NCBI GenBank assembly: GCA_965215615.1
Contig: OZ244068.1
Span: forward strand, 1,648,223-1,712,222
Reading direction: 5' to 3'
Source: Vicinamibacteria bacterium
GTDB taxonomy: Bacteria; Acidobacteriota; Vicinamibacteria; Marinacidobacterales; Marinacidobacteraceae
DNA length: 64,000 nt
In this document: in pieces, positions 6,320 through 63,196 of the stretch
How positions within the stretch are numbered: the stretch's first letter is position 1
Layout: every line of letters begins with the position of its first letter
The notes under the pieces: generated by a model
The model's database searches: none
The model's input: the letters and a program-made list of their open reading frames with translations, nothing else
Told to the model about the DNA's origin: nothing
Translations under genes and position numbers: made by a program

Positions 6320-6748
6320 CATCAGCGAACCTGTCTCCCATGGGTTGTGGAGTCCAATCCCCAACCCCTCGAAATCACCGACGTTGCGCGTCACCACCGT
6401 CAACCCGCCCAGGCGGGCGATCGCGGCGATCTGGCAGTCGATCGGATCCGGATGAAGGCCGCGGGCGCGCCGCATGGCCGCCATCTCTGCGTAAACACAG
6501 GCCGCTTCGCGATCAAAGGGCAGGACGCGGTCGCCGAAAGCTCTCCGTAGCATCCCCTCCATGCGGGAGAACAGCGCTTCGCGCCGATGTCCCACCGGCA
6601 GGATCGCGACAGCGTAGCGGAGCTCTGCCTCGCTCACAGCAGACAGGAAAAGTTCTTCAGGAACCTGGGCGGCGATCCATGATTCGACAGTGCGCGCCGG
6701 TTCCAGACGCATCAATTCGGACACCACGTTCGTGTCCAGCAGAAACAC
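6293..6748 (-). CDS. vapC: PIN-domain toxin VapC
   Basis: 'MFLLDTNVVSEL...' N-terminus with conserved D; ~150 aa; directly downstream of an RHH antitoxin gene. Confidence 0.8.
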   Translation of the reverse strand: MFLLDTNVVSELMRLEPARTVESWIAAQVPEELFLSAVSEAELRYAVAILPVGHRREALFSRMEGMLRRAFGDRVLPFDREAACVYAEMAAMRRARGLHPDPIDCQIAAIARLGGLTVVTRNVGDFEGLGIGLHNPWETGSLMSVAEEGEG

Positions 6749-46400: not shown

Positions 46401-47212
46401 AGACCGGAGGCGAGAGCCACCGGGCGGACACCGACTGGACGATGGCGGCGGCGGGAATACGGGGAGACCTGCTGGATCCGGCGGGCGGGCCGCTCGCGGT
46501 AGCGGTGATCGGCGACGGACTGTGGACGCGGAGCACATCGGATGAGATCGCCGCGCTTTCGACGGCGGATACCTTCGTGACCCGGCTGCGGCTCGGGGTG
46601 GAGGCCAGCTACGACTTCAACTTCGACGGCATGGGCGATCTCACGCCGCGGGTGGAAGCGGGCGCCCGCCACGACGGGGGCGATGCGGAGACCGGGGCCG
46701 GGATGGATCTCGGTGTCGGAATCAACTGGAAGGCACCGGTCTTCGGATTGAGCCTCGATGTCGCGGGACGGATGCTGATCCTCCACGAGAACGAGGACTT
46801 CGCGGACCGGGGGATTTCGGCGGCGGTGGTCTTCGACCCGAACCCGGAGAGCGAGCGGGGGCCGTCGCTTTCGCTGCGCCAGGCGATCGGCGGGAGCGCC
46901 GACGGGGGGATCGAGGCGCTGTTCGCGACGACGACCCCACTCGGCGACGGCGGGAACATCGGGAGCGGAGCGGGAATGCGACGGACGCTTGAGACCGCGT
47001 ACGGCTTCTCCGCCTTCGGGGGGCGCTTCACGGCGAGTCCGCACGCCGAGGTGGACTTCACGGAGCGGGCGCGGGACTACGCGCTCGGCTGGCGGTTCGT
47101 GCCGCACAAGCTGGCATCGGACCTCGCGTTCGGCATCAAGGCCACCCGCCGGGAAGGCGAGACCCTGGCCCCGGTGCACGTCTTCGGGGTCGAGGCCACC
47201 GTGCGCTGGTGA
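34409..47212 (+). CDS. giant (4267 aa) autotransporter-like surface adhesin with FN3, Ig-like and Calx-beta-like repeat arrays and a C-terminal outer-membrane beta-barrel
   Basis: Single 12,804-nt ORF; signal peptide ending AEAQT; >15 FN3-like modules ('TITKYQVR...GTEYSFQVRAV'); Calx-beta-like 'VTVVDNDPTTVTLAG' modules; Ig-like 'PTVAITGIPAKINN...' modules; last ~450 aa autotransporter-type barrel ending 'VEATVRW'. Confidence 0.9.
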   Translation: MRGVRGWFRGRVALSCRSLRGVLAAALLFGIATAAEAQTTVTFVSNLNSEGGTDNANTFRDRLAQSFTTGASSGGYLLSSVEIYLGRNAYVGGTPVVVIRADSSGDPGDVVVTLTNPGSYPGRQDRDGGTAIFTAPAGTTLAASTTYWVVINDEDRSLFWASAYSKNHTTTGLPGWSMGGTKIRRQGATNWATFDDLLPMELSGTVVTASGPDAPANLQAVVSSGQVELTWDDPSDDTITKYQYQQRTPPSTGTWGEWTDISNSDEDTTDHTVTGLTNGTEYEFGVRAVAGSTNGTAATVSATPVAPPAAPTSLTARAGATQVTLSWTDPGNATITKYQVRYGAGLTTDSGFSWGTWADVSSSSATTTSATVTGLTNGTEYTFGVRAVGLSGDGAEATVSATPLASGAPAKPTGLTATAGGSSVTLSWTAPSGTITKYQVRQGTGDPVMWGAWADITGTTSHTVTGLTNGTEYSFQVRAVANTVLGAMSDTASATPNAPPAAPAGLKAEAYPAEIRLEWTEQTDDTITGYQYQTRARSEGDWGDWSGWSNVPLGEVGEDDKVFSFSGKSYYKVADLTNGTEYGVRIRAVAGTVPGAASAIVTGTPNVRPLAPTGLSATAGDGQVSLTWDDPSNAAITKYQVTYEVVATSVPATEDVPVNGATTSHTVTGLVNGTLYSFELVPFAGTVSGPSSGKVRATPTAPAGLTLTQPDDRQVDEGDTADTATFTVALRSLPAADVMVTVTAPAGLELDGPDAGGVFASSEDLAFTTANWNSAQTVTVRATDDSTDSPSGREEVIAWSATSTDTDYSGLKGDAATVTVVDNDPTTVTLAGAAGDVTEGGTKDFTVTLGRGLVSGERLVVPLTFGTGTGTATRNTDYTVACPSPLPDGAGVVCANLNTGNAALTFAGPSMGETLKEVTLTLSAASDNTTETGGETVIIGLGTLNASSGTGLEGGASGTDSLADFKITDPDASVPTVAITGIPAKINNTNALTATFTFSEAVTGFEKADITVTGGTAGTFSATSTTVYTLGITPDGDANVVVTVAANSATDGTNMGPASAESATAVWDETAPTVEITGVPGKISNRDAFTVTFSFSETVTGFDTDDVSVTNGDKSAFSGSGSSYTVVVTPNADADVTVTVAAGGATDGLNTGPANAVSATATWDASVPTVEISGVPKRITTRAAFTVTFTFSESVTDFVTGDVTVTNGDKSSFTGSGSSYTVVVTPNADADVTVTVDANSATDGTNTGPTADVVATAVFGAPAAPTVTATAGNGQVTLSWTDPSDDTITEYEYQQREEGGTWPNSWTDIANSASLTEYAVTSLTNGTTYEFRVRAVSGTVTSPASSVVTATPLAATAPGPPRDLRVAPGDGQVVLNWRVPGTNADAITKYEFRQGTGDPLAWGAWGDASGTTTSHTVTGLTNGTEYSFQVRAVANTVLGAMSDTVEATPNPVPAAPTNFTATKGTASGAIALSWTAPSGTITRYEYRLRPVGGDWPQSWTRLTVLVTSFTVGSQTDGTEYEIELRAVNDSGAGAAASATATPLDPTAAAAPTSFTATAGSGQVALAWTAPSGTITKYQVRQGTGDPVVWGAWADITGTTSHTVTSLTNGTEYSFQVRAVTGTSVLGAMSATATATPTAAPGVTISVTDASVSEADQTDTATFTVVLNTEPSSGLVVVSVDASGAPGLELDGPDAPTAFSNAEVLTFTTTNWNSPRTIRVRATSEATDNPSGREETITWTATATADTDYQNLTGDAATVTVVDNDPTTVTLAGAAGDVAEGATKTFTVTLGRGLVDGETLGVPLAFTGTATRGTDYMTACPTTLPTGVTCNDLDDTSLTPTVTFTGPTSGATARTVTLTLSAASDNTTETGGETVIIGFGTLTATGLEGGTSTTDSLADFKITDPDASVPTVAITGIPAKINNTNALTATFTFSEAVTGFEKADIAVTGGTAGTFSATSTTVYTLGITPDGDANVVVTVAANSATDGTNMGPASAESATAVWDETAPTVEITGVPGKISNRDAFTATFSFSETVTGFDTDDVSVTNGDKSAFSGSGSSYTVVVTPNADADVTVTVAAGGATDGLNTGPANAVSATAVWDETAPTVDITGIPAKINNTNALTATFTFSESVTGFAKSDITVTGGTAGAFGGSGTTYTLAITPTSGSNVVVTVAANSATDGTNMGPASAETATATWDASVPTVGITGVPARISGTSDLTATFTFSEDVTGFVKNDITVTGGTAGTFTESSSTVYTLVITPDGDANVVVTVTADSATDGLNMGPASAETATAVWTALVFNPAAVTVVEEASATYTVELSSQPDGNVTVTVSGASGEVTFDTDSTTPGTQTTALTFTTTTWDDAQTVTVLAAADGDTANDSATLTHTASGGGYGSVTGDVEVTVTDNDTPGLVLDPTSLTVAEGGSGTYTVALATQPTASVTVTVAGASGEVTFDTDGDTGGNQNTLTFTTSDWGTAQTVTVSAGQDNDADDDSATLTHSASGGGYGSVTGNVAVTVTDDDTASVVTTEPDATATEGSTTDEATFTVALNTRPSSDVTVTVTAPTGLTLDGPDSATTFTSSEGLTFTSTNWSTAQTVTVRATDDNDDSPIGRELTVTYAVTSSDSGYSGLSGDAATVTVVDDDPTTVTLAGTAGDVVEGGTKTFTVTLERGLVNGETLPVPLTFGGDATRGTDYTTACPTTLPTGVTCANLDSGTPTVTFTGPSTGATATTVTLTLTATTDNTAEAGGESVVIGLGTLNASSGTGLGGGASGTDSLADFDITDPDASAPTLEISGVPKRITTRAAFTVTFTFSESVTDFVTGDVTVTNGDKSSFTGSGSSYTVVVTPNADADVTVTVDADSATDGTNTGPPADVVATAVFGAPAAPASLSATAGNAAVTLSWTDPMDDTITGYEFRQGVQSSPVTWGSWTPITNSDKDTTSHTVTGLTDGTEYYFQVRAVSDAVMGEPSAEENRDAVVTPVAVNAPAAPTGLGATAGNGQVALSWTASSSNGITKHQVRSGSGDPLVWGSWTDIANSASITSHTVTGLTNGTEYSFQVRAVATAVLGVTSDTAVATPRGAAGVTTTQPSDRQVTEGDTSDTATFTVELDTQPSSDVTLTVEAVAGLELDGPDGATAFTASEALTFTSSNWGTAQTVTVRATDDSVDRPSGGDLTVSYSIASSDSGYNLLFGVAALVTVIDNDPTAVTLAGAAGDITEGETKDFTVTLGVRGLVSGETLGVPLTFTGGATRGTDYTTACPSSLPTGVTCNDLNTAATPTVTFTGPSTGETARTVTLTLSAATDNTAETGGETVMIGLGTLTATGLEGGASGTGSLADFRITDPSATDTTVPTLSISGVPGTISTRAAFTANFTFSESVTDFDTNDITVTGGSKGTLSGSGRSYRMRITPTGGVNVVVTVRRNAATDGTNRGPAAAVSRTATWRAPSPPPQQPPAEEDDDDPPSSGGGGGGGGSTPSLPSASLSAVSVSAGQMVIEGGEALFRITASPVPSDEITVRVRVSATGDFVDGVQLGERLVTLSASAPTASLRVATIDDRRNEADGTVTVTVLSGEDYRLSQASASLAVTDDDTPALVLTPETLTVDEGGSGNYRVALATEPAGDVTVSIAGTGEVTTAQNTLTFTAGNWNVAQPVTVSAGQDADAADDRARLDHRASGGGYDSVTGSVAVTVMDDDTPGLILTPAALTLAEGASASYTVALATEPTGNVTVSIAGTGDVTVDRSTLSFTARNWSAAQTVTLFAARDEDVANDSATLAHHARGGDYSSVTGSVEVTVTDAGAAVVSAHLARFGRTVAEQALDGIAGRLRAPRTAGMQKTLAGPRLNVPREGDTAQGTMHAEARRTGFENEYESQNRDLLHLPNAREMLLGSSFTLTTQEAEGTGGSFAFWGRASANRFDGATNDGATAIGLDGEVLTGLVGADYARGDWLFGLALTHSLSEGGYTSEGASGGKVDASLTAALPYASIQANPRLKLWGAGGYGIGEVTLKTGGESHRADTDWTMAAAGIRGDLLDPAGGPLAVAVIGDGLWTRSTSDEIAALSTADTFVTRLRLGVEASYDFNFDGMGDLTPRVEAGARHDGGDAETGAGMDLGVGINWKAPVFGLSLDVAGRMLILHENEDFADRGISAAVVFDPNPESERGPSLSLRQAIGGSADGGIEALFATTTPLGDGGNIGSGAGMRRTLETAYGFSAFGGRFTASPHAEVDFTERARDYALGWRFVPHKLASDLAFGIKATRREGETLAPVHVFGVEATVRW

Positions 47213-51768: not shown

Positions 51769-54700
51769 TCAGTCCTCCTGATTGGGACGGGGAGTGAGAC
51801 GCGGGGGGCCGCCGGCGCGGAGCTCATCGCCCAGTGGGCCGATGCGGGCACGCACCGCATCCCACGCGGCGATCCGCTCCCCGTACTCGGCGGCGAGCGC
51901 CTCGATGCGGGCAAGGGTTTCCGGTCCGGGGGCCTCGGTGTAGGCATCGAGATTTCGCGCGATCGCCGCCAAACGGGCGAAGAGCGGCCGGGGCCAGGCA
52001 CCGAAACCGGGCCGGCCCTCGTTCCGGGAGAGATTTCGGGCCGCTTCGGTGGCCGCCTCGTGGAATTCGCCGACCCGGGTCTTGAGCTCGCTGTCCGGCT
52101 CTTCGGCGAAGGCCGCGACCAGCGCTTCGGCTTCTTCGGCGGTGGCTTCCGCCTGCTCGTTAGCGCGATGCATCCCGGAAATCATCCCGGCGAGCCGCAG
52201 GAGCGCCGCGTGGTTCGCCCGCCGGTCGGCATCCGAAATCCGGATGCGCGGGTCTTCGGAAACCCGGACGGTCTCCTCGGCGGAGGCCTCGCCGCTCTCG
52301 ATCCGGACCCGGTACTCGCCGGGGAGCGCCCGTGGGCCGGCCGGCGGGCCGCCGAACCCCTGCCCGCCTCCGGGAATCGGCGAGTCGTGACGAAGGTTCC
52401 AGTTCACCCGGTTGAGTCCGGGCTCGAAGTCCGCTTCGAGGGTTCGCACCACCATCCCCCCGGCGTCGCGGACCGTGACCTCAGCCTTGCCGGCGGTGGA
52501 CGCATACACGTGCAGCAGCGCTCCTTCCGGAGGGTTCTCCGCGAGGAAGAACTTGTGACCGGTGTTTCCCTTGTGGTTGTAGATGCGAAAGGCGTGAGCC
52601 TCCCGGATCGGGAAAAGGTGGAGCTCCTTCTCGAAGACCGAGGCATCGAGAGTGGTGAGCGGGGCGATGTCGTCGGCGATCCAGACGCTCCGGCCGTGAG
52701 TGCCGAGAATCAGGTCGTTCTCCCGGGGGTGGATCGCGAGGTCGTCCACCGGGACGGTCGGAATCTGGCCGCCGATCCGGTGCCAGTTCTCTCCCCGGTC
52801 GAGGGTCAGATAGACGCCGAATTCGCCGCCCGTCACCAGGAAGTTCTCGTTCTCGTGGTGCTCGCGGATGACGTTCAGCGCAGCTTCCGGCGGGAGAGCG
52901 GCCGCGAGCGAGCGGAAACTGTCTCCGTAGTCCTCGCTCGCGAACACGTAAGTCGCGTAGTCGTTGTTGCGGTGGCCGTCGAGCGTCACATAGACCCGCG
53001 AAGCCGAATGCGCGGAAGCGACCAGCCGGGTGACATAGGTCTGGTCGGGCACGCCGGGGAGATTCCCGGTCAGGTTTTCCCAGGTTTCGCCGCCGTCCCG
53101 ACTCCGCTGGAGGTTGCCGTCGTCGGCCCCCACATAGATCACCCCCGCTTCCACCGGCGAGACCGCGATGGTCACGATCTGGCCGAAAGTCGAAATCCCG
53201 TCATGGCGGGAGAGGGTGTCCTCGGTCACCGGCGCGCCCATGATCGGCAGTTCATCGCGGTCGAGGCGCTTGGTCAGATCTTCGGTACGGGTCCAGGCAT
53301 CGCCCCGATTCTTCGAGATGAAGAGGCGGTTGCCTCCGTAGAAGACGGTGTCGGGGTCGTGCGGGGAAACCACGATCGGGCTGTTCCAGTCGAAGCGGTA
53401 GCGCTCGCCGTCCGCTTCCGGCTCGGGCCGGATCGTCTTGGTCTCCGAGGTAAGCCGGTTGAGGCGGCGCAGGTTGCCGTTCTGGGATTCGATATAGACG
53501 GTGTCCGGATCGTCCGGAATCACCTGGGTGTAGAAGCCGTCGCCCCCGCCGATCCGGAACCAGTCCTCGTTGCTGATCCCCTGCCGGAAGAGGGTCCGCG
53601 AGGGGCCGGCCCAGCTCCCGTTGTCCTGAAGTCCCCCATAGACGAGGTAGGGAGCGTTCATGTCGTAGCCGATCTCGTAGAACTGGCCGAGCGGGATCGT
53701 GTTCACGAAGTCCCAGCTCCGCCCGCGATCCCACGAGAGATGGATGCCGCCGTCGTTGCCGAGCACCATGTGGTTCGAATCGGCAGGGTTGATCCAGAGC
53801 GCGTGGTGATCCACGTGGATGCGCTGGACCCAGTCGGTATCGAAGGTTCGCCCGCCATCCTGCGAGTAGTGCATCCGGGTTCCCAGCACCCAGATGCGCT
53901 GGTCGTTGTTCGGGTCGATCCGGATCTGACTGTAGTACATCGGCCGCGGGTTGGTGTCGCTCATCCGCTCCCAGGTGAGTCCACGATCCTCCGAGCGGAA
54001 AACGCCGCCTTCGCGGTTTTCGACGATCGCATAGACGACGCGCGGATCGCGGCGATAGACCGCGAGGCCGATCCGGCCGGTGTCGCCTTCGGGGAGGCCG
54101 CCCCCGAGCTTCGTCCAGCTCTCGCCGCCGTCGGTGGTGCGATGGATGCCGCTCCCCGGCCCGCCGCCCGCGAATCCGTAGGCGCGCCGTCGCCGCTGGT
54201 AGAGCGCCGCGTAGAGGATGTCCGGGCTTTCCGGATCCATCGCGATCTCCACCGCTCCGGTGTTCTCGTCCCCGTGAAGCACCCGGTCCCAGCTCGCGCC
54301 GCCGTCGCGGGTCCGATAGACACCCCGCTCGTCGTTCGGCCCCCAGAGATGGCCGAGCGCGGCGACATACACGGTGTCGGGGTCAGCCGGATGGACCAGA
54401 ACCCGGCCGATGTGGTGGGTATCCGCGAGTCCCTTGTGCTCCCAGGTGGTCCCTCCGTCGCCCGACCGATAGACCCCGTTCCCCCACGAACTGCTCTGCC
54501 GGTTCGCGGGCTCCCCGGTCCCCACCCAGACGACCGAGGGATCCGAAGCGGCCACCGCCACCGAGCCGATGGAAGAGACTTCTTCGTTCTGGAACTGCGG
54601 AATCCAGGTCGTGCCGTGGTTCATCGTCTTCCAGAGACCGGCGCTCGCGGTGGCCACCCAGAAGGTCTTCGGATCGGACTCGACGACCGCCAGATCATCG

Positions 54701-54849
54701 ATCCGGCCGCCCATGATGGCCGGGCCGATGTTCCGCCACTCGATCCGGTTCAGGATGGATTCGACCTGCTCGGGGGTCTGCCCTGCCGCCGGAAGCGCCG
54801 GCAACACGAAAGCCACGAAGAGCAGGGCACGTGCGAAAGGAACGTTCAT
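51769..54849 (-). CDS. secreted BNR/Asp-box repeat protein (sortilin/VPS10-like glycoside-hydrolase-type beta-propeller)
   Basis: Signal peptide after the ATG at 54847-54849; multiple 'S.DGG.TW' Asp-box repeats; ~1026 aa. Confidence 0.75.
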   Translation of the reverse strand: MNVPFARALLFVAFVLPALPAAGQTPEQVESILNRIEWRNIGPAIMGGRIDDLAVVESDPKTFWVATASAGLWKTMNHGTTWIPQFQNEEVSSIGSVAVAASDPSVVWVGTGEPANRQSSSWGNGVYRSGDGGTTWEHKGLADTHHIGRVLVHPADPDTVYVAALGHLWGPNDERGVYRTRDGGASWDRVLHGDENTGAVEIAMDPESPDILYAALYQRRRRAYGFAGGGPGSGIHRTTDGGESWTKLGGGLPEGDTGRIGLAVYRRDPRVVYAIVENREGGVFRSEDRGLTWERMSDTNPRPMYYSQIRIDPNNDQRIWVLGTRMHYSQDGGRTFDTDWVQRIHVDHHALWINPADSNHMVLGNDGGIHLSWDRGRSWDFVNTIPLGQFYEIGYDMNAPYLVYGGLQDNGSWAGPSRTLFRQGISNEDWFRIGGGDGFYTQVIPDDPDTVYIESQNGNLRRLNRLTSETKTIRPEPEADGERYRFDWNSPIVVSPHDPDTVFYGGNRLFISKNRGDAWTRTEDLTKRLDRDELPIMGAPVTEDTLSRHDGISTFGQIVTIAVSPVEAGVIYVGADDGNLQRSRDGGETWENLTGNLPGVPDQTYVTRLVASAHSASRVYVTLDGHRNNDYATYVFASEDYGDSFRSLAAALPPEAALNVIREHHENENFLVTGGEFGVYLTLDRGENWHRIGGQIPTVPVDDLAIHPRENDLILGTHGRSVWIADDIAPLTTLDASVFEKELHLFPIREAHAFRIYNHKGNTGHKFFLAENPPEGALLHVYASTAGKAEVTVRDAGGMVVRTLEADFEPGLNRVNWNLRHDSPIPGGGQGFGGPPAGPRALPGEYRVRIESGEASAEETVRVSEDPRIRISDADRRANHAALLRLAGMISGMHRANEQAEATAEEAEALVAAFAEEPDSELKTRVGEFHEAATEAARNLSRNEGRPGFGAWPRPLFARLAAIARNLDAYTEAPGPETLARIEALAAEYGERIAAWDAVRARIGPLGDELRAGGPPRLTPRPNQED

Positions 54850-54907
54850 GGGATTCCTCCTCGTGCGAGCGTACACCACATGGACTCGGGAACCCCGGAG
54901 GCCCGCC

Positions 54908-55168
54908 TTGCGCACCGTGAACCTGCGTTACGCCAAGGCCCACCACTCCCGCCTCGTGCGCGAAGCGGTGAGCGGGCAGCCGTTCGTCATCGCCCGCGCC
55001 GGGAAACCGCTGGTGCGGGTCACGGCCATACCGGAGGAGACCCCGGCGAAGCGACTGATCGGTTGTCTCGACGGGCAGTTCTCGGTTCCCGACGACTTCG
55101 ACACCATGATGGCGGATGAGATCCAGGCGATGTTCGAAGGCAAGCCCAAGGAACCAATCCCGAAATAG
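54908..55168 (+). CDS. Phd/YefM-family antitoxin, orphan upstream copy (TTG start)
   Basis: 'RTVNLRYAKAHHSRLVREAVSGQPFVIARAGKPLVRV...'; ~119 nt identical to copy 2; the ATG is replaced by TTG; no toxin gene follows. Confidence 0.55.
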   Translation: MRTVNLRYAKAHHSRLVREAVSGQPFVIARAGKPLVRVTAIPEETPAKRLIGCLDGQFSVPDDFDTMMADEIQAMFEGKPKEPIPK

Positions 55169-55202
55169 ACTAAGCTGACTGAACTAACCCCGGAGATCCA
55201 CC

Positions 55203-55478
55203 ATGCGCACCGTGAACATGCACCACGCCAAAACCCACCTCTCGCGTCTCGTCCGCGAAGCGGTGAGCGGGCAGCCGTTCGTCATCGCCCGCGCCGGGAA
55301 ACCGCTGGTGCGGGTCACGGCCATACCGGAGGAGACCCCGGCGAAGCGACTGATCGGTTGTCTCGACGGCCAGTTCTCCGTACCGGACGACTTCGACACC
55401 ATGATGGCGGACGAGATTCAGGCGATGTTCGAGGGCAAGTACAAGGGCGTTCTCGATGAGGGACACGAACAGGAGTGA
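55203..55478 (+). CDS. Phd/YefM-family antitoxin (copy 2)
   Basis: 'MRTVNMHHAKTHLSRLVREAVSGQPFVIARAGKPLVRV'; stop overlaps the toxin GTG start (GTGA). Confidence 0.8.
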   Translation: MRTVNMHHAKTHLSRLVREAVSGQPFVIARAGKPLVRVTAIPEETPAKRLIGCLDGQFSVPDDFDTMMADEIQAMFEGKYKGVLDEGHEQE

Positions 55479-55867
55479 AATTTCTTCTCGACACCCACGT
55501 CCTTCTCTGGGCCACGAGCATTCCGGAAAAACGGACCCCGGAACTGCTGGCGCTTCTCGAAGCACCCCGAACGGAGTTGTTTTTCAGTGCGGTATCCATC
55601 TGGGAAGTCGCGATCAAGAACCAGCACCATTCGGGGAACCTCTTTTCTGCCGACACGCTCCGTTCCAGGCTCCTTGAAGTCGGATGCATCGAACTCCCTG
55701 TCACCAGCACCCACGCGGTCGCGATCCGGAACCTCCCTCCGATCCACAAGGATCCATTCGACCGGCTTCTGATCGCCCAGGCTCAGGTAGAAGGAGTCAC
55801 CCTACTGACCGCGGATCGGACCATCGCGCGGTACCCCGGCCCAATCCGCCTGCTCGGGAGGCGCTGA
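55475..55867 (+). CDS. PIN-domain (VapC-family) toxin
   Basis: 'KFLLDTHVLLWA...SIWEVAIK...' PIN acidic residues; GTG start overlapping the antitoxin stop. Confidence 0.8.
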   Translation: MKFLLDTHVLLWATSIPEKRTPELLALLEAPRTELFFSAVSIWEVAIKNQHHSGNLFSADTLRSRLLEVGCIELPVTSTHAVAIRNLPPIHKDPFDRLLIAQAQVEGVTLLTADRTIARYPGPIRLLGRR

Positions 55868-56081
55868 CGCGCGGAGCGTTGCTGATTTCGCCTACGCGAC
55901 GCGGCCTGTCGCGGTGGCCCCGGCTTGATCTGGCGGCAGAGAGGCGGGCCACTCGCTCGGCGATGGCGTGGATGCCATGACGGATCGCCTGACGTTCCTT
56001 GCTGGCGGTCCGCTGCCCGGTGAGGATGAGCCCGGCAAGACTCACCCCGACGGCGAGGATGGCGTAGAACTCGGGGGTCAT
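55797..56081 (-). CDS. possible small membrane protein (hypothetical, weak)
   Basis: ORF with an N-terminal TM helix 'EFYAILAVGVSLAGLILTG'; no clear RBS; overlaps the vapC-like 3' end. Confidence 0.2.
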   Translation of the reverse strand: MTPEFYAILAVGVSLAGLILTGQRTASKERQAIRHGIHAIAERVARLSAARSSRGHRDRPRRVGEISNAPRVSASRAGGLGRGTARWSDPRSVG

Positions 56082-56173
56082 GCGCTGAATCGTACGCCGA
56101 CCCCCCTTTCTGTCAGCACTCGTGAGACACTCGGCCGGATATGGTCAGAACAGTATATCGTCCGCGTCGCCGG

Positions 56174-57679
56174 TCATCGGTCGATGTGCTCTGGGGGCGA
56201 ACCTTTCGGAGGTATCGGAAGAAATCCCTCGTCACCGCTCGTCTGTTCAATACGCCTGTAAATCTCCATCATATTTTCCCCGTAGCGCTTGAGTTGAAGA
56301 TCGCGATCAGCTTGCGCCTCCTGCGATTCGAACTTTTTTTTGACCGACGGAAGTTTCTTCCAATCATCAAGCTCCTTCAGCCCCCCGCGCGTGGCTTCGC
56401 GTACAGCTTCCCACACGATCGGGTTCGTCATGCAGATATTTCTCCAAGGATCTAGTCTCATCTCTTTTCGAATCTCGTCACGTAGTTCTCGCAACGCCTT
56501 TTCTGCTTGAGTGGGATCAAGTCGTTTCTTTTGCTGCCAGTCAACCCGCGCTTTGGCTGACTTCTGTGCCACCCCGGTGTCGCCCGACTCCGCCTTCTGA
56601 CCCGTCTTTCGCACACCGATTCCTTCGGCCGACGTAAGCTTCGCGATGTCCTTGCGCAGACTATCGAGCAGTTCTGCCAGACCGCGTTCGATATGCTCGT
56701 GAACCCTGGCATCGAGCCGACCCATCCGGTCCTTGATTCCAGAATCCAGGCCGTCCAGCCTGGCGCTCCATTCCTTGCGACTCTCGTTCTGCTCCACCGC
56801 ACCTGAGATCTTCCGAAATATGTCTTCGATGCGCTTGTAGATCTTGTGAATCTTTTCGTGTTCTCCGACGACCACAGCCTTGACTTCGTCGTGGACTTTA
56901 CCGACCGTTTTGTGACGCTCTCCAGCAATCAACGCCGCGATCTGATCCGTTATTTCGCTACCTTTCGGCAATTCGTCAAGCGTCTTGATCAGTTCCTGGT
57001 TTTTCTCCTGCCGCTTCTGAAGTTCAACGCGTAATTCCTTCTCGTTCTCCTTCAGCTTGCGAATCGTCTCATCTCGATCTTGAATCTTCTCGAGGAGTTC
57101 TTTGCGGTCGGACTCCGCTCGCTCCCGTTCTTTCGATACAGAACGGGGAGAAGGAAGGTCGTCAACCCTTGCGAGCGCCTCCTGGCACAATTTTTCCAGA
57201 TTTTCGATCTTGTGCTTTTGCGGAAATTCGGGATAGGCCAGGTCCGTCGCATGCAAGATGGCACTGGCCGCAGATCGCAGCATGTGCTTGGTCAGTTGCC
57301 GTGAGTGGTTTGCACAGTTTCGAAGTTCCTGGATATACCAAAAAAGTCGCGAGAGTTCATAGCAGCGACGCTCGATCCATTTCCTATTGATATTGTTGTG
57401 CTTTTCCAGTTTGTCTTCGAACACACCGGGCAATTTCCAGAAGGGCATTCGTCCTTTGGTCGTTTCGATGTCACGGCGCAGGACTTGCAGTGTCTCGAAA
57501 TCCGGGTTCTCTCGTGGATCTCGTACTCTCGGGTTGAAGTTTCGGACACACTTCATTTTGACGAATATATCGACCGTTCTTCGATGAATATCTTCTGCGA
57601 GTTCGATCAGCAGAGTCATATTGTTGGGTTGGAGCAGCTCGTTATAGGCATCTCGGAGCTCCTCGGGTTTCAAGCTCAT
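56174..57679 (-). CDS. 501-aa hypothetical protein: N-terminal HEPN-like domain (Rx4H motif 'RNCANH'), long central coiled coil, C-terminal domain of unknown function
   Basis: GGAGGG SD 7 nt before the ATG at 57677-57679; gene GC ~53% against ~70%; K/E-rich heptad region ~aa 170-330; 'LFWYIQELRNCANHSRQL'. Confidence 0.7.
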   Translation of the reverse strand: MSLKPEELRDAYNELLQPNNMTLLIELAEDIHRRTVDIFVKMKCVRNFNPRVRDPRENPDFETLQVLRRDIETTKGRMPFWKLPGVFEDKLEKHNNINRKWIERRCYELSRLFWYIQELRNCANHSRQLTKHMLRSAASAILHATDLAYPEFPQKHKIENLEKLCQEALARVDDLPSPRSVSKERERAESDRKELLEKIQDRDETIRKLKENEKELRVELQKRQEKNQELIKTLDELPKGSEITDQIAALIAGERHKTVGKVHDEVKAVVVGEHEKIHKIYKRIEDIFRKISGAVEQNESRKEWSARLDGLDSGIKDRMGRLDARVHEHIERGLAELLDSLRKDIAKLTSAEGIGVRKTGQKAESGDTGVAQKSAKARVDWQQKKRLDPTQAEKALRELRDEIRKEMRLDPWRNICMTNPIVWEAVREATRGGLKELDDWKKLPSVKKKFESQEAQADRDLQLKRYGENMMEIYRRIEQTSGDEGFLPIPPKGSPPEHIDR

Positions 57680-57740
57680 CCGCCACCCTCCGAGGTCGTC
57701 AGCAGGGAGCCTTCTTTCACGAGCGCCCCGTAAATTTCCC

Positions 57741-58169
57741 TCATCCTGTCTCTTCGTATTCGTTCAGCATCAACACCGCCTCGCCATGCATGGAGGACGC
57801 GACGGCGTTCGCGAATCGCGAGTCGGCCGTCACTACCTTCGCGCCGACCCGGTGCGCGAGGGCGAGGTACACACAGTCGTACACGGGATGGTCAAGGGAT
57901 AGCGCCAAGCGAACGGCATCCGTGCTGACCGTCTCGTCGCCCGCCCAGCGCACCGGAATGCCAGACAGTTCAGCCATGGCGGTGCTTGCGTGGGCTCGAT
58001 CGATCTCGCCCACCCGCGCCTTGCGCCACAGCGCATTCGCAACCTCGGTCGCCATCAAGCGCGGCGCATGCAGCTCCTGGCCGCTCGCCACCAGTTTTCG
58101 CGCAGCTTCCGAAGTGCGCTCGTCCACCAGCAACTTGACCGCCACGCTGGCATCCATCACGAGACGCAT
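57741..58169 (-). CDS. vapC: PIN-domain toxin VapC
   Basis: 'MRLVMDASVAV...' PIN fold; ATGA overlap with the upstream antitoxin. Confidence 0.8.
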   Translation of the reverse strand: MRLVMDASVAVKLLVDERTSEAARKLVASGQELHAPRLMATEVANALWRKARVGEIDRAHASTAMAELSGIPVRWAGDETVSTDAVRLALSLDHPVYDCVYLALAHRVGAKVVTADSRFANAVASSMHGEAVLMLNEYEETG

Positions 58170-58429
58170 CAGAACCCGTCGCGATGGCCGCGGTCGCGGT
58201 CCTCCCGGATCAGCTCTTCGGCGGGAGTCTGCTTGCTTCCCCTCGTCTTCTCCCGCAGCCGGTCTGATGCCACGAGGAAAGCGGCCCGTTTCCCGGCCAC
58301 GTCGTCGTCGGACGCGCTCTCCAGAATGTGGCGCACCTCACCCTCGAGCGACCGATTGCTCGAGGCGGCGCGACGCTTGAGACGCTCCACGATGTCATCG
58401 CGGAGTTGTCGTACGAGGATCGTCGCCAT
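58169..58429 (-). CDS. vapB: RHH (FitA/StbC-like) antitoxin VapB
   Basis: 'MATILVRQLRDDIVERLKRRAASSNRSLEGEVRHIL'; ATG at 58427-58429. Confidence 0.7.
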   Translation of the reverse strand: MATILVRQLRDDIVERLKRRAASSNRSLEGEVRHILESASDDDVAGKRAAFLVASDRLREKTRGSKQTPAEELIREDRDRGHRDGF

Positions 58430-58504
58430 GGGTTCGTTCCACGAAGCTATCACATGGATAGCGTGCTCCCTGCGCTCGATGGGCGGCGGTCGCACTCACG
58501 CTGC

Positions 58505-61500
58505 CTACTCCGGGATCGTGAGCAGCGAGCCCTCCTTCGCGAGCGAGCCGTCCGCCACCAGCCCGTCGAGCACCTGCCGGAATCGCTCGACAACCGGCTT
58601 CGTCACCCGCTCGAAGCCGAACAGACGCGCCGCCTCCCGGGCCGCAGCTTCCGGCTCGATCCCGTAGCTCACCCGCGCCGCCTGGATCAGCGCGGTCGCG
58701 ATCTCTTCTTTCGCGATCCGCTCCGGCTTGCGGAGGGATGGGGGGAGCTCTCCGCTGCGAACGCGGACTTCCGCAGTCGCGCTCTCTCGCCGCCAGAGGA
58801 ATCCTTCCGCATCCATCCGGCAGAGGCCGCTGCGCTCCGCTTCCGCTACGCCGAGCCGCATCTGCTCGCGGATTCGGGACCCGGTGCGCCCGACACCCGT
58901 CGCCTCGCGGATGCGCAGCAGGACTTCCTCCTCGTGGACCGGACTCTCCACCGCGACCACTTTCCCGATCCAGTCGGCGAACCGGGCGGCCGGCGCCTCG
59001 TGGAGCGGGGTGGCCAGGATGAGAATTCCGAGATCGGCCACTTCGTAGGGGCGGGTGGGCACCGCGACTTCCCGCTCGGCCTCCGGGGCGCGATCGAGCG
59101 GCTTCGCCCGCTGCGGCGGTGCAGGCGGGGCCGGGCCGGTCGTCTCGGAGGCTGCCCGGATAGCCGCCTCCACCTTCTTCATCTCGGTATCCGGGTCGCG
59201 GAACCAGTCGGTGCTCCAGATGCGGTGGATCGTCCAGCCCAGCCCTTCGAGCACCTGCTGGCGGAGCCGGTCGCGATCGCGGGCGGAGCGGGAGCTGTGG
59301 TAGGTCGCGCCGTCACACTCGATCCCGAGGAGGTACCGGCCCGGCTGGCGGGGATCGCGCACCGCCAGATCGATGAAAAAGCCCACCGAGCCGACTTGGT
59401 GCTCCACCTCGAAGCCGAGCGCCCGCACCCGGTCGGCGACCGCTTCCTCGAAGGGAGAATCGGCACCGCGCCCGGTGGTCCGGGGGGTGTCCAGCTTGCC
59501 GGTTTCGGCATATTCGAGGAAGGTCTTGAGCGCGGCGATGCCCCGCGCATCCGAACGCCGCAGATCGAGGTCCGCGCCGGTGAAGTTGCAAAAGACCACC
59601 GAACGCCGCCGCGCCCGGGTGATCAGCACGTTCAGGCGGCGCTCCCCGCCCTCGCGGTTGAGCGGGCCGAAGTTCATCGGCAGGTAGGTTCCTTCGACCT
59701 TGCCGTAGCCGACGCTGATCAGGATCACGTCCCGTTCGTCGCCCTGGACGTTTTCGAGGTTCTTCACGAAGAAGGGCTCTTCCGGGTGCGCGCCGAAGAA
59801 TCCCTCGCCGCCGGATTCCTTCCGTCGCAGGATGTCCACCTCGTCCTCGATGCGCCGCGCCTGGGCGTTGCTGAAGGCGGCGACCCCGAGCGTGAGTCCG
59901 GGTGACTCGCGGGCGTGCTCCATCACCGCCTGCGCGATCCCTTTCGCCTCGGCGATGTTGATCCCCTTGCGTTCGTAGTGGTTTTCGGGGTTCTGGCGGA
60001 AGAGGAGCCCCGCGTCTTTCTTCCCGGCATCGGGGCTCGGGAAAACGATCAACCGATCGTCGTAGAACTCGTGGTTCGAGACCGCGATGAGCGATTCGTG
60101 CCGGCTGCGGTAGTGCCACTTGAGCATCCGCTCCGGCGCACCCTGCGCCGAGAACATCCCGAGGATGCTCTCCATGTCCGCCGTCAGGCTCCCCTCCTCT
60201 TCGTCCTCGTCCACCATCCGGTCGAAGAAGCTGGTGGGCGGGAGCTGCTTGCTGTCGCCGACCACCACCGTCTGCGCGCCGCGAAGAATCGCCCCGAGCG
60301 CGTCCACCGGCCGCACCTGACTCGCCTCGTCGAAAACCACCAGATCGAAGCGGATCGACCCCGGCGGGATGTACTTGGCGATCGAAAGCGGGCTCATCAT
60401 GAAGACCGGCTTGATGCTCTGGATGGCGCGCCCCGCCTCCCGCATGAGACGCCGGACCGGAAGATGGCGGCTCTTCTTCTGGAACTCCCGCTTGAGCACC
60501 CCGAGCTGGCCGCCTCCCTCGTGGCGCGGCAGTCGCTTCCAGTGCTGTTCGGCGATCCGTGCCTGGTTCTCGTGGAATTGCTCGGTATCCAGCTCGCGGA
60601 ACCGCTCGACGACCCCCGCGTGGGTCGCCCCGTCGAACTCGGCGAGCGGGAGGCGATCACGGAACGCGATGTCCAGCCAGCCGCCATAGCAGGCGTGCTC
60701 GAAGCGCGCGGTCAGGTTCCGGGCTGCATCCGCTGAGGAAGCGGCGAGGGCCGCCACCTCGGGGATTCCCTCCTCCGCCCCGCGGTGTTCGTACTGGTTG
60801 AAGCGGACCACATCGAAAGCGGAGTCGGCATCCGCGTGAGCTTCCTGTAGCCAGCCCCCGAGAGCGCCGAAGTTTCGATCCGCGAGCGGCCCCTCGTCAC
60901 CGAGCCGGTCAGGGCGCACTTCGAGAAACTCCTCGAGATCCCCGAGCGCCCGCCCGAATGCCTCTCTGGCGGCATCCGCGGCTTCGGCGGAAGTTTCGAG
61001 CTCAGGGAGGTCGGGCCGGTCGTCGAGAAGGGCGTGGATTTCGGGAGCGATCCGCCCCTCGGCCAGATCCCGGTGAAGCGCCGCGAGCCATTCCGCCGCC
61101 TCGGCGAAACTCCGGTATGTCTCCACCCGGTCCCCGAGACGGAGCCCGGGAAACAGCCGTTCCACGAGGTCGGCAGATTCCGCGACCTCTCGCCGCAGCC
61201 GACGGGCTTCGAGGATCGCGTCGAGGAGCTCGATCTGCTCGGAAACGGCCCCCGTTGCGGTATCGCGGCAGAGCCCGCCCACTTGGCGGCTCGCCTCCCG
61301 GAATCGTCCGGAAAGGAAGCGCCACCACTTGCTACCGACCGTGCGAAGCGTCTGGCGGATAGCCAGCACGTCCTGATCCCAAGCCTCGGGGATCAGAACA
61401 CGGTCGCGCTCTTCGCGGATTTCGGCGTAGCGCCGGGCGGCCTCTGCCACCAGTCCGGCCGGCTCGGAATCGCGATGCCTCGCCCCGAGCAGATCCGGCG

Positions 61501-63196
61501 CTTCCCGGACCCGACGGGCAGTCCGTGCCAGTCGCTCCAGATCCTCCCGCGTCAGCGCGGAAAACCTTTCCTCGCAACCCATCCGGCCGCGGAGTGCTTC
61601 GGAGCCTTCTTCGAGGCGGCGAAGGCTCGCCGTCACGCTCGCGACGAGCTCCCGGAGCCGGGGCGCATCGCTCGGGAGGAAGTTCCGACGGCCCGAGATC
61701 CACCAGCGGTGCCCGCCCGGAAGCCCGATCGTCGCCACCAGGGCCTCGATCTCCCGGACGAGCGCCCGGCGGCGAGCGAAATCCCCGGCAGTCCAGGAAG
61801 CCAGGTTTTCGATCCCGAGCGCGGCCTCTTCCGGATCGAGCCCTTTGGCTCTGAGCGCGGTGATCCGCCCCACGAGGTCGTGGGGAGTCAGCCGGCTCTC
61901 CCCGACCGGAGTGCCCACCGCTTCCGAATAGTCGTTGAGCCGCTCGCGGCTCGCCTCGAGGAGGGCGCGTCGCTCGCCCGTGTCCTGGGTCTTCGGGCAT
62001 CCGAGCGCGAGGGTCCGCTTGAGCTCGTCGAGCACCGCCCGCTTGTTCGTCTGGTGGCTGTGGAGTTCGAGGCACGCCTCCCCCAGATGGACGGAGTCGA
62101 GGCGGCGCTTCACGACCTCGAGCGCGGCCATCTTCTCCGCGACGAACAGGATCGTCTTGCCGCGGGCCAGCGCCTCGCCGATCAGGTTGGTGATCGTCTG
62201 GGACTTGCCGGTTCCGGGCGGCCCCTGGATGACCAGATTGCGTCCGGCCATCGCATCGAGCACCGCGAGCGCCTGCGAGCTGTCGGCATCCACCACCGGA
62301 TGGAGGCCAGCCTCCTCGACATCCCCCGTCCCCTCCCCGCCTGCCTCGAAATCGGGAGGCTCTTCCCGAAAACCCGCCTCGCTGAAGAGCTTCCGGGCGA
62401 CCGGGTGCTCCGAAGGCCCGGCTCCCTCCGGCCAGCTCGCCGGGTCCAGATCCTTGTAGATCAGCAACTTGTTGAAGGAAAAGAAGTCGAGATGGATGTC
62501 GTTCCGCTCGACCGACCAGCCGTTCTGGCTCTCCACCGCGCGTTCGACTTCGGTCAGGTACGTCTCCACGTCCAGCTCGTCTTCGGCCGGCATCCCGGGG
62601 AAACGCACGTCGAAATCGGTTCGCAGCTTGGTTTCGAGCGAGAGATTGGGTTCGATGTCTTCTCCGGTCCAGGAGAGCTTGAAACTCTCGCGACCACCCG
62701 ACCGGACGAGCTGCGCCGGCAGCAGGATCAGAGGGGCGCAGCGGTCGGCTTCGCTCTGATCGGATTCGCGCCAACGGAGCGTTCCGAGGGCGAGGAAGAG
62801 GAAGTTCACCCCCTGCTCTTCGGTCATGAGGCGTGCCTGCCTCGAGGTCTCGCGGAGGCGCAGGTTGAGGTTCGGGAGGGAGAGCGCGGTCTGGAGCTTG
62901 TTGTCGGTGTGCCTCGCGGCAGGTTCCGCATCGTCCGGCGGCTCGGCAAGGATCGCGAGCAGTTCCTCGGGAGCATCCGAGCGGGTTTCTTCCGTGTCTT
63001 CCCCGGGGAGGAAATACATGACGCGCTCCTCGCGGACCAGAATCCGGAACACCTCCCGGGAGAGTTCGTCCACGATCCGAACCCCCCGTCGCCTTCCCGG
63101 ACGGAAGCTCAGTAGCGGGTTGCGAAACGAGAAGTCGAGAACGTCGCGGCGGGAGCCCTCGATGGCGAGCGCGACCGGATCGGCAGCAGAGGACAT
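58505..63196 (-). CDS. 1563-aa DUF4011 / Upf1-DNA2-like SF1 helicase / DUF559 (Vsr-like PD-(D/E)xK) nuclease / DUF3320 fusion protein
   Basis: Walker A 'GPPGTGKSQTI', motif II 'VVFDEASQ', 'VVVGDSKQLPPT', motif VI 'NVLITRARR'; C-terminal 'FFIDLAV...LGIECDGATYHSS' nuclease core. Confidence 0.85.
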   Translation of the reverse strand: MSSAADPVALAIEGSRRDVLDFSFRNPLLSFRPGRRRGVRIVDELSREVFRILVREERVMYFLPGEDTEETRSDAPEELLAILAEPPDDAEPAARHTDNKLQTALSLPNLNLRLRETSRQARLMTEEQGVNFLFLALGTLRWRESDQSEADRCAPLILLPAQLVRSGGRESFKLSWTGEDIEPNLSLETKLRTDFDVRFPGMPAEDELDVETYLTEVERAVESQNGWSVERNDIHLDFFSFNKLLIYKDLDPASWPEGAGPSEHPVARKLFSEAGFREEPPDFEAGGEGTGDVEEAGLHPVVDADSSQALAVLDAMAGRNLVIQGPPGTGKSQTITNLIGEALARGKTILFVAEKMAALEVVKRRLDSVHLGEACLELHSHQTNKRAVLDELKRTLALGCPKTQDTGERRALLEASRERLNDYSEAVGTPVGESRLTPHDLVGRITALRAKGLDPEEAALGIENLASWTAGDFARRRALVREIEALVATIGLPGGHRWWISGRRNFLPSDAPRLRELVASVTASLRRLEEGSEALRGRMGCEERFSALTREDLERLARTARRVREAPDLLGARHRDSEPAGLVAEAARRYAEIREERDRVLIPEAWDQDVLAIRQTLRTVGSKWWRFLSGRFREASRQVGGLCRDTATGAVSEQIELLDAILEARRLRREVAESADLVERLFPGLRLGDRVETYRSFAEAAEWLAALHRDLAEGRIAPEIHALLDDRPDLPELETSAEAADAAREAFGRALGDLEEFLEVRPDRLGDEGPLADRNFGALGGWLQEAHADADSAFDVVRFNQYEHRGAEEGIPEVAALAASSADAARNLTARFEHACYGGWLDIAFRDRLPLAEFDGATHAGVVERFRELDTEQFHENQARIAEQHWKRLPRHEGGGQLGVLKREFQKKSRHLPVRRLMREAGRAIQSIKPVFMMSPLSIAKYIPPGSIRFDLVVFDEASQVRPVDALGAILRGAQTVVVGDSKQLPPTSFFDRMVDEDEEEGSLTADMESILGMFSAQGAPERMLKWHYRSRHESLIAVSNHEFYDDRLIVFPSPDAGKKDAGLLFRQNPENHYERKGINIAEAKGIAQAVMEHARESPGLTLGVAAFSNAQARRIEDEVDILRRKESGGEGFFGAHPEEPFFVKNLENVQGDERDVILISVGYGKVEGTYLPMNFGPLNREGGERRLNVLITRARRRSVVFCNFTGADLDLRRSDARGIAALKTFLEYAETGKLDTPRTTGRGADSPFEEAVADRVRALGFEVEHQVGSVGFFIDLAVRDPRQPGRYLLGIECDGATYHSSRSARDRDRLRQQVLEGLGWTIHRIWSTDWFRDPDTEMKKVEAAIRAASETTGPAPPAPPQRAKPLDRAPEAEREVAVPTRPYEVADLGILILATPLHEAPAARFADWIGKVVAVESPVHEEEVLLRIREATGVGRTGSRIREQMRLGVAEAERSGLCRMDAEGFLWRRESATAEVRVRSGELPPSLRKPERIAKEEIATALIQAARVSYGIEPEAAAREAARLFGFERVTKPVVERFRQVLDGLVADGSLAKEGSLLTIPE

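Follow-up and report, generated by a model that had tools for sequence, protein, structure and literature searches.

Why would a toxin-antitoxin operon carry its antitoxin gene twice? The question is raised by a stretch of 64,000 nucleotides from a Vicinamibacteria bacterium (contig OZ244068.1, positions 1,648,223 to 1,712,222), which we refer to as the window and to which all coordinates below belong. In this 64-kb window, a Phd/YefM-type antitoxin gene and the PIN-domain toxin gene that follows it are preceded by a second antitoxin gene of the same type. We call the first antitoxin gene A1 and the second A2. The answer to which we lean, giving it even weight for and against, is that A1 may be an auxiliary antitoxin: weakly translated, able to bind the toxin, probably able to pair with A2, and no longer under control of the operator that precedes A2.

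A second antitoxin gene in front of a complete module

The three genes are encoded on the plus strand in the order A1-A2-toxin, with a spacer of 34 nucleotides between A1 and A2. A1 (54908-55168) starts with TTG and encodes an extra Phd/YefM-type paralogue of 86 amino acids ending in the tail KPKEPIPK. A2 (55203-55478) starts with ATG, encodes a canonical Phd/YefM-type antitoxin of 91 amino acids and is translationally coupled to the gene of a VapC-type PIN-domain toxin (55475-55867, 130 amino acids), whose GTG start overlaps the A2 stop codon (GTGA). An earlier note on this DNA had described a tandem duplication with both reading frames at these positions, a toxin behind the second copy only, and an upstream copy with a TTG start and the KPKEPIPK end, all of which we recovered. 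The note had also called A1 an orphan. This is apt in so far as A1 has no toxin gene of its own, but not as the description of a separate locus, given that A1 lies immediately upstream of A2 and the toxin.

As is typical of type II systems, A2 sits immediately 5' of the toxin gene and is coupled to it, which does not hold for A1, since A2 comes next. At least 147 related loci have their antitoxin and toxin genes in this order. Both antitoxins pass the gathering cut-off of the Pfam family PF02604 (29.8 bits), A1 with 31.1 and A2 with 32.9 bits, as well as the cut-off of TIGR01552 (20.8), with scores of 21.5 and 24.1, respectively. A2 matches the family consensus at every near-invariant position. 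The toxin matches PF01850 (E = 1e-14; 55.6 bits against a cut-off of 23.6) and has no match in NCBIfam; its acidic residues D6, E44, D93, and D113 are invariant in an alignment with nine orthologues. An AlphaFold2 (AF2) model of A2 contains a strand at residues 2-5, helix α1 at 6-21, and two further strands at 26-30 and 33-38 (predicted local distance difference test, pLDDT, ~88-90), followed by a disordered linker of low confidence (residues 41-68) and a short helix (69-76). A1 and A2 have the same amino acids over residues 18-79, so the A2 model also covers the shared sequence. Neither the antitoxin profile nor A2 nor the toxin found a usable structure in sequence searches of the PDB, the sole match being Phd of phage P1 (E = 1.6). 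Judged by its sequence, the A2-toxin pair is a complete canonical module, with operator, Shine-Dalgarno site, ATG start, consensus antitoxin, and a coupled toxin whose predicted catalytic set is intact.

A1 is likewise an open reading frame. The frameshift that the earlier note had allowed for is not there, nor is there an internal stop codon; A1 is called as a gene in public assemblies and its exact protein is on record (P0004). A Shine-Dalgarno site read from the sequence, GGAGG (54897-54901, plus strand), precedes the TTG by 6 nucleotides. Three other annotations of the gene were considered and rejected: a longer A1 starting at 54569, as this stretch runs antisense to the divergent sortilin-like gene (minus strand, 51769-54849); initiation at codon 4 (GTG), which would be 15 nucleotides away from the Shine-Dalgarno site; and a read-through fusion of A1 and A2, as the offset of 295, not being divisible by three, puts the two genes in different frames.

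The doubling of the antitoxin gene sets this locus apart from its relatives. We compared it with 161 other loci of the family, of which 79 come from species-representative genomes, 80 from metagenomes, and two from the closest protein relatives, and in 161 of 161 a single antitoxin of this kind is followed by the PIN gene. Ten of these loci are close orthologues, and nine loci (L002-L008, L024, and L081) share the divergent upstream gene, which is sortilin/BNR-like. The closest relatives are metagenome-assembled genomes labelled Acidobacteria, Vicinamibacteria, and Candidatus Marinacidobacterium. From this distribution and the shared neighbour, the duplication is specific to this lineage, the single antitoxin-toxin arrangement is the ancestral state, and the module was inherited at its site; the A1-A2-toxin arrangement is, on the same comparison, a product of the long branch leading to this organism. 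Metagenomes were also scanned at the DNA level for the C-terminal end of one antitoxin with the N-terminus of another behind it, and no further case came up.

An extra Phd-like frame of another kind lies upstream of the antitoxin in two loci of this antitoxin-PIN family from metagenomes (L122, 1168-1389; L155, about 1156-1320). These frames of 54-63 amino acids comprise the N-terminal domain only, are 63% identical to each other and match PF02604 with E ~1e-5, which is below the gathering score. Both adjoin an amino-acid permease gene and represent an independent arrangement of small protein, antitoxin, and toxin.

Age of the duplication and origin of the identical core

A1 and A2 are contained in a direct repeat of 261 nucleotides (54891-55151 and 55186-55446) that aligns without gaps at 91% identity and has a period of 295 nucleotides. 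A repeat of this length and identity cannot have arisen by chance. It takes in both antitoxin genes plus 17 nucleotides of leader, including the AACCCCGGAG sequence at 54891-54900 and 55186-55195, to which the earlier note had rightly drawn attention. The differences between the copies are distributed very unevenly: 14 fall into the first 68 positions, none into the next 116, and 9 into the last 77. The exact run corresponds to codons 18-55 and is located at 54959-55074 in A1 and 55254-55369 in A2, both on the plus strand. The perfect block of 119 nucleotides given previously (54958-55076 and 55252-55370) is therefore real, though 116 nucleotides long, and the ~90% identity claimed for the remainder is too high, since 122 of the 145 positions outside the tract match (84%), leaving 23 differences. 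When 23 differences were placed at random, a difference-free run of 116 nucleotides had a probability of p = 1.8e-5 (10^6 permutations).

Within codons 18-40 alone, there are 7-11 synonymous differences between orthologues and the two window copies, so that selection on the protein cannot account for identical DNA. The tract also spans the linker (IPEETPAKRL), where the protein sequences of the family vary most. On either side of the tract, A1 and A2 differ at 5 of ~12 synonymous sites in codons 2-17 (0.41 per site) and at 7 of ~13 in codons 56-79 (0.55 per site), a divergence as large as that of either copy from orthologues of other genera. With its flanks near synonymous saturation, the duplication is old, and the very recent event suggested by the earlier note does not agree with these data. 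Gene conversion of the core, which had been put forward as well, is the option that we favour: the 116-nt tract is probably a gene-conversion tract, and the comparison of core and flanks argues strongly for an old duplication with later or recent conversion of codons 18-55 as the simplest history.

As for the event itself, a partial tandem duplication very probably copied the 5' part of a chromosomal operon, comprising the leader and the antitoxin gene up to about codon 81, and the junction placed the last five codons of A1 and its stop codon into what was formerly sequence upstream of the operator. The structure may have originated in a tandem duplication and a subsequent deletion of ~50 nucleotides upstream of A1, or in a single non-contiguous insertion.

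A short tandem repeat with an identical core of 116 nucleotides, known from two metagenome-derived assemblies, is also what one might expect if the duplication were an artefact of assembly or a very recent event. We hold this to be extremely improbable. A separate assembly (L001), in which the locus lies on a contig of 2.9 Mb at ~170x, has the same A1-A2-toxin arrangement without any difference inside it. It is 99.94% identical to the window over 5,192 nucleotides, with 3 mismatches that all fall into the upstream gene, yet it is without the window's 2.4-kb segment at 56100-58493 and only 94.8% identical beyond it. In a collection of 15 billion proteins, the cluster at 90% identity has two members, A1 and A2, each found on two contigs. 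As the structure is shared by two distinct assemblies, and as 23 positions and the ends distinguish the copies, the assembly artefact that the earlier note had named as a way to be refuted is very unlikely, and the divergence of the flanks rules out a recent event.

The divergence of the flanks could, in principle, have been acquired in another way. A1 could be a mosaic in which the divergent flank or flanks of one copy came, by homologous recombination, from another strain or species with a diverged allele of this antitoxin; the differences in the flanks would then mirror the donor's past as a functional antitoxin in single copy, and the duplication could be younger than it appears. At the synonymous sites of codons 2-17, A1 indeed differs from the orthologues L005, L002, and L007 at 1-3 positions and from A2 at 5, the exclusively synonymous differences in codons 56-79 are the pattern of two functional alleles, and the locus adjoins a strain-variable defence region. 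These counts are too small to be separated from saturation noise, however, and the 15 billion proteins contain no donor-like sequence, the 90% cluster being restricted to A1 and A2. Moreover, the unique substitutions of A1 at invariant residues are present in no other member of the family, and we consider the mosaic to be improbable.

Changed and conserved parts of the A1 protein

The two ends of A1 have changed in different ways. In codons 1-13, every non-synonymous difference is derived in A1 (M1, now encoded by TTG, M6L, H7R, H8Y, T11A, and L13H), and the derived changes of A2 are synonymous only. Conservation in the family reaches at least 90% at M6, H7, T11, and L13, and, when placed on the A2 model, five near-invariant residues are altered in the first two turns of helix α1. 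A hidden Markov model (HMM) of the family for residues 1-40, built without both window copies, assigns 67.4 bits to A1, compared with 81.3 for A2 and 76.8-85.0 for 26 relatives. In YefM, the α1 region holds a DNA-contacting basic patch, and R10 and R31 of the Escherichia coli protein are essential for operator binding (PMC4803016). The equivalent residues, K10 and R30, are retained in A1, with their surroundings altered. At the other end, homology between the copies stops after codon 81, and the KYKG and acidic tail of the family is replaced in A1 by KPKEPIPK.

Codons 56-79 hold the conserved motif VPDDFDTMxADEIQAMFEGK and the only C-terminal helix of the model, and form a putative toxin-binding segment. 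Here, A1 and A2 are separated by seven synonymous and no non-synonymous changes. Had A1 drifted neutrally with A2 being constrained, ~16 non-synonymous changes would be expected in this segment, and ~4.7 would still be expected if only one of the seven synonymous changes had occurred on the A1 branch (P ~0.01). The contrast in synonymous to non-synonymous changes between the N-terminal region (5:5) and codons 56-79 (7:0) has a Fisher p of 0.044. The codon comparison establishes A1 as an old, open-frame paralogue whose domains have evolved differently and whose core bears the marks of conversion.

These patterns bear on the possibility that A1 is a non-functional relic of the duplication, poorly expressed or silent, and slowly decaying while its middle part is repeatedly repaired by conversion from A2. 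It is the strongest alternative to an auxiliary antitoxin, and we regard it as unlikely, if by no means far-fetched. The exchange of ATG for TTG would fit decay, as would the five changes at near-invariant residues, including L13H, the outlying HMM score of the N-terminal domain and the absence of the KYKG/acidic tail, and the conversion tract as demonstrated by the permutations would be the trace of the repair. Set against this, the seven synonymous and zero non-synonymous changes in codons 56-79 are very unlikely under neutral drift, and the ~48 unconverted codons of A1 have acquired neither a stop nor an insertion or deletion despite their near-saturated synonymous divergence.

Loss of the operator upstream of A1

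The sequence in front of A2 contains a candidate operator of the family, consisting of TAGACTAA at 55166-55173 and TGAACTAA at 55180-55187 on the plus strand, at -36 and -22 from the A2 start. The A1 stop codon TAG (55166-55168) provides the first three bases of box 1. The double box has one match in the window, the one before A2 (55166-55187), where 0.01 would be expected, and all ten close orthologues have T(A/T)AAACTAA at -36 and TGGACTAA at -22 from their ATG. Across several phyla, at least two copies of the half-site [AG]ACT[AT]A occur in the 60 nucleotides upstream of the antitoxin in 145 of the 161 family loci. Of 732 control windows from these loci, 721 lack the half-site altogether and the other 11 have a single one. 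In L002-L162, the half-sites are concentrated around two positions relative to the ATG, about -38 to -31 and -24 to -19. They often form the palindrome GGACTWAGTCC, and are arranged as direct repeats in some clades and as inverted repeats in others, an example of the latter being GTGGACTAGGTTGGGTTAGTCCAC from Paracoccus. We infer that the box pair is the operator of the antitoxin, to which the antitoxin would bind. A role of box 1 (TAAACT/TAGACT) as a -10 element was rejected, as no conserved -35 element stands alongside it.

The 60 nucleotides upstream of A1 contain no half-site. The left half of box 2 survives as a remnant, TGGACT (54881-54886, plus strand), which aligns with TGGACTAA at -22 of the orthologues, and CGGG has taken the place of the right half. 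Next to this remnant is a conserved element, GAGCGTACACCAC (54867-54879), which belongs to the divergent sortilin-like gene as part of its leader or promoter region. Four syntenic orthologues (L003, L005, L007, and L008) have the motif upstream of their antitoxin start as well. Its GTACAC core is 78-82 nucleotides upstream of the ATG in orthologues and 37 nucleotides from the A1 start, indicating that ~45 nucleotides including operator box 1 are missing in front of A1. A1 has lost both its predicted operator, in cis, and its conserved α1 surface, which would act in trans.

The intergenic gap between the sortilin-like gene and A1 is 58 nucleotides, compared with ~170-370 nucleotides in the orthologues, so that the promoter of the sortilin-like gene must overlap the leader or the coding sequence of A1. 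The GAGCGTACACCAC element may itself belong to this promoter.

The upstream region, too, speaks to the idea of a decaying relic. Loss of the family operator together with ~45 nucleotides is in line with it, and so is the outcome of a scan for sigma-70 promoters and terminators (54600-56200), which gave no relevant hit for either antitoxin gene, a promoter of A1 included. It is less easily reconciled with the Shine-Dalgarno site, which has been retained with its spacing in a leader, GGAGGCCCGCC, that is identical to the leader of the orthologue L005. No terminator or stable RNA structure was found between A1 and A2, and an Rfam scan of 54000-58600 gave no match. A structured RNA or attenuator in the spacer was rejected, as the spacer folds no better than shuffled sequence (z = +1.5) and matches no Rfam family.

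Genomic neighbourhood

Downstream of the toxin gene, the window contains a segment of 2.4 kb (56100-58493) with a low content of guanine and cytosine (GC; 51-58%, against ~67% around it) that is absent from the second assembly and has the look of an insertion particular to the strain, placed directly behind the module. It encodes a coiled-coil-rich open reading frame (ORF) of 501 amino acids (56174-57679, minus strand) and an ORF of 196 amino acids (57790-58380, plus strand), neither of which has a significant family in Pfam or PADLOC. Beyond the segment lies a helicase gene (58505-63196, minus strand; 1563 amino acids; DUF4011/AAA_11/AAA_12/MTES_1575/DUF3320) whose product matches PDC-S37, a candidate defence protein of PADLOC, along its full length with 1809 bits and also matches Hhe. 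The helicase gene is 94.8% identical between the two assemblies, compared with 99.94% for the 5 kb to the left, and the module thus borders a fast-diverging defence locus.

The PIN gene converges with an ORF of 94 amino acids (55797-56081, minus strand), which has an N-terminal hydrophobic segment and overlaps the 3' end of the toxin gene by 71 nucleotides. This ORF is 100% conserved in the second assembly and belongs to no Pfam family; the orthologous locus L081 has a minus-strand gene of 104 amino acids at the same relative position. Elsewhere in the window, a tblastn search detected no other copy of the antitoxin-PIN family. A distantly related PIN-domain coding region at 6365-6745 (minus strand; 33% identity to the toxin, tblastn E = 4e-5) presumably encodes another VapC-type toxin. 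The window also contains a very long ORF of 4267 amino acids (34409-47212, plus strand).

The position of the module beside a defence island is one of the features that could suggest an anti-addiction role for A1, that is, protection from homologous PIN toxins introduced by plasmids or phages rather than from the neighbouring toxin. The idea is known for chromosomal antitoxins, and the occurrence of the family across phyla suggests mobility. The earlier note had named this role among others, but we found nothing in its favour at the locus: A1 is placed 34 nucleotides upstream of A2 and not at a separate site, its putative toxin-binding segment has the amino-acid sequence of A2 and would thus be tuned to the resident toxin, and no family copy on a mobile element turned up in the window, where none was sought. 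We therefore consider anti-addiction very improbable.

Discussion

How might an auxiliary antitoxin work at this locus? A1 would be translated at a low level from its TTG codon, would still bind the PIN toxin, and would probably pair with A2, given the identity of residues 18-55. Being outside operator-dependent autoregulation, it could add toxin-neutralising capacity or tune the ratio of antitoxin to toxin beyond the reach of the feedback loop. Buffering of the toxin, as proposed in the earlier note, fits the conservation of the putative toxin-binding segment along with the loss of the operator and of α1 residues, and is to be read as a prediction from these features. A more specific version, which we find distinctly unlikely as it stands, is that A1 has become sub-functionalised into a toxin-only binder, a sponge for the PIN toxin outside the operator feedback. 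Conversion would keep its dimerisation core identical to that of A2. Repression could then be weakened by A1:A2 heterodimers in which one of the DNA-reading heads is defective, and the ratio of antitoxin to toxin at which the system fires could shift.

Several observations weigh against an auxiliary antitoxin. TTG is a weak start codon, the promoter scan left A1 without a promoter of its own, and the gene begins just 58 nucleotides from its divergent neighbour. With L13H, α1 loses a conserved hydrophobic residue, which could make the fold less stable, and the loss of Y80 and of the conserved tail may matter for toxin inhibition. The argument from selection draws on ~13 synonymous sites, in a genome that is rich in GC and has codon bias, and distant outgroups do not allow synonymous changes to be polarised reliably. 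Had one flank been brought in by recombination, the synonymous differences could also be older than the duplication. Finally, the locus is carried by two nearly identical genomes only.

If A1 is functional, the locus is a natural experiment in which a duplication has separated the blocking of a toxin from the self-repression of the operon, and it would illustrate that gene conversion can keep paralogues compatible while their ends diverge. The A1/A2 pair could also be used to map the α1 residues that read GGACTWAGTCC in a widespread Phd/YefM-PIN family. Should A1 be a relic instead, we are dealing with an ordinary instance of a gene that was duplicated and has since decayed. Neither outcome amounts to a new kind of system.

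Comparison with known systems

A2 and the toxin have all the expected parts of a canonical type II, VapBC-like Phd/YefM-PIN module, including a palindromic operator and matches to PF02604 and PF01850. The locus departs from this plan by the second antitoxin directly upstream, which is outside the operator, has an altered α1 and a replaced tail, and starts with TTG; a second full-length antitoxin copy is found in 0 of the 161 other family loci. In a limited search of the literature, we found no VapBC-type or Phd/YefM operon with a tandem full-length antitoxin paralogue, the search returning only SpoIISABC and general reviews.

With orphan or solitary antitoxins, A1 shares the lack of a toxin gene of its own. 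The anti-addiction model for chromosomal antitoxins was reportedly put forward by Saavedra De Bast and colleagues in 2008. A1 differs from such antitoxins in being located 34 nucleotides upstream of its paralogue and the toxin, and in having toxin-binding residues that match those of the resident antitoxin.

The SpoIISABC system of Bacilli has two adjacent small antitoxins, both of which have been shown by experiment to bind and neutralise one toxin (PMC4926146, PMC4526809). One toxin accompanied by two adjacent small antitoxin genes is also what we describe here, and the resemblance is architectural only: the families are unrelated, with no homology to SpoIIS proteins found, SpoIISA is a membrane toxin, the gene order of SpoIISABC is toxin-antitoxin-antitoxin, and neutralisation by A1 is a prediction where that by the SpoIIS antitoxins is an experimental result.

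Type II systems with three components, such as paaR-paaA-parE and omega-epsilon-zeta, have a separate regulator. In these systems, two small proteins encoded upstream of the toxin divide DNA binding and neutralisation between them, a split that the A1-A2 pair would share, and in L122 and L155 an extra Phd-like gene stands ahead of a module of the family described here. The extra protein of the three-component systems is, however, the DNA-binding part, and A1 would be the opposite, having kept the putative toxin-binding segment while its DNA-binding helix and its operator degraded. The extra frames of L122 and L155, which consist of the N-terminal domain only, are accordingly the mirror image of A1.

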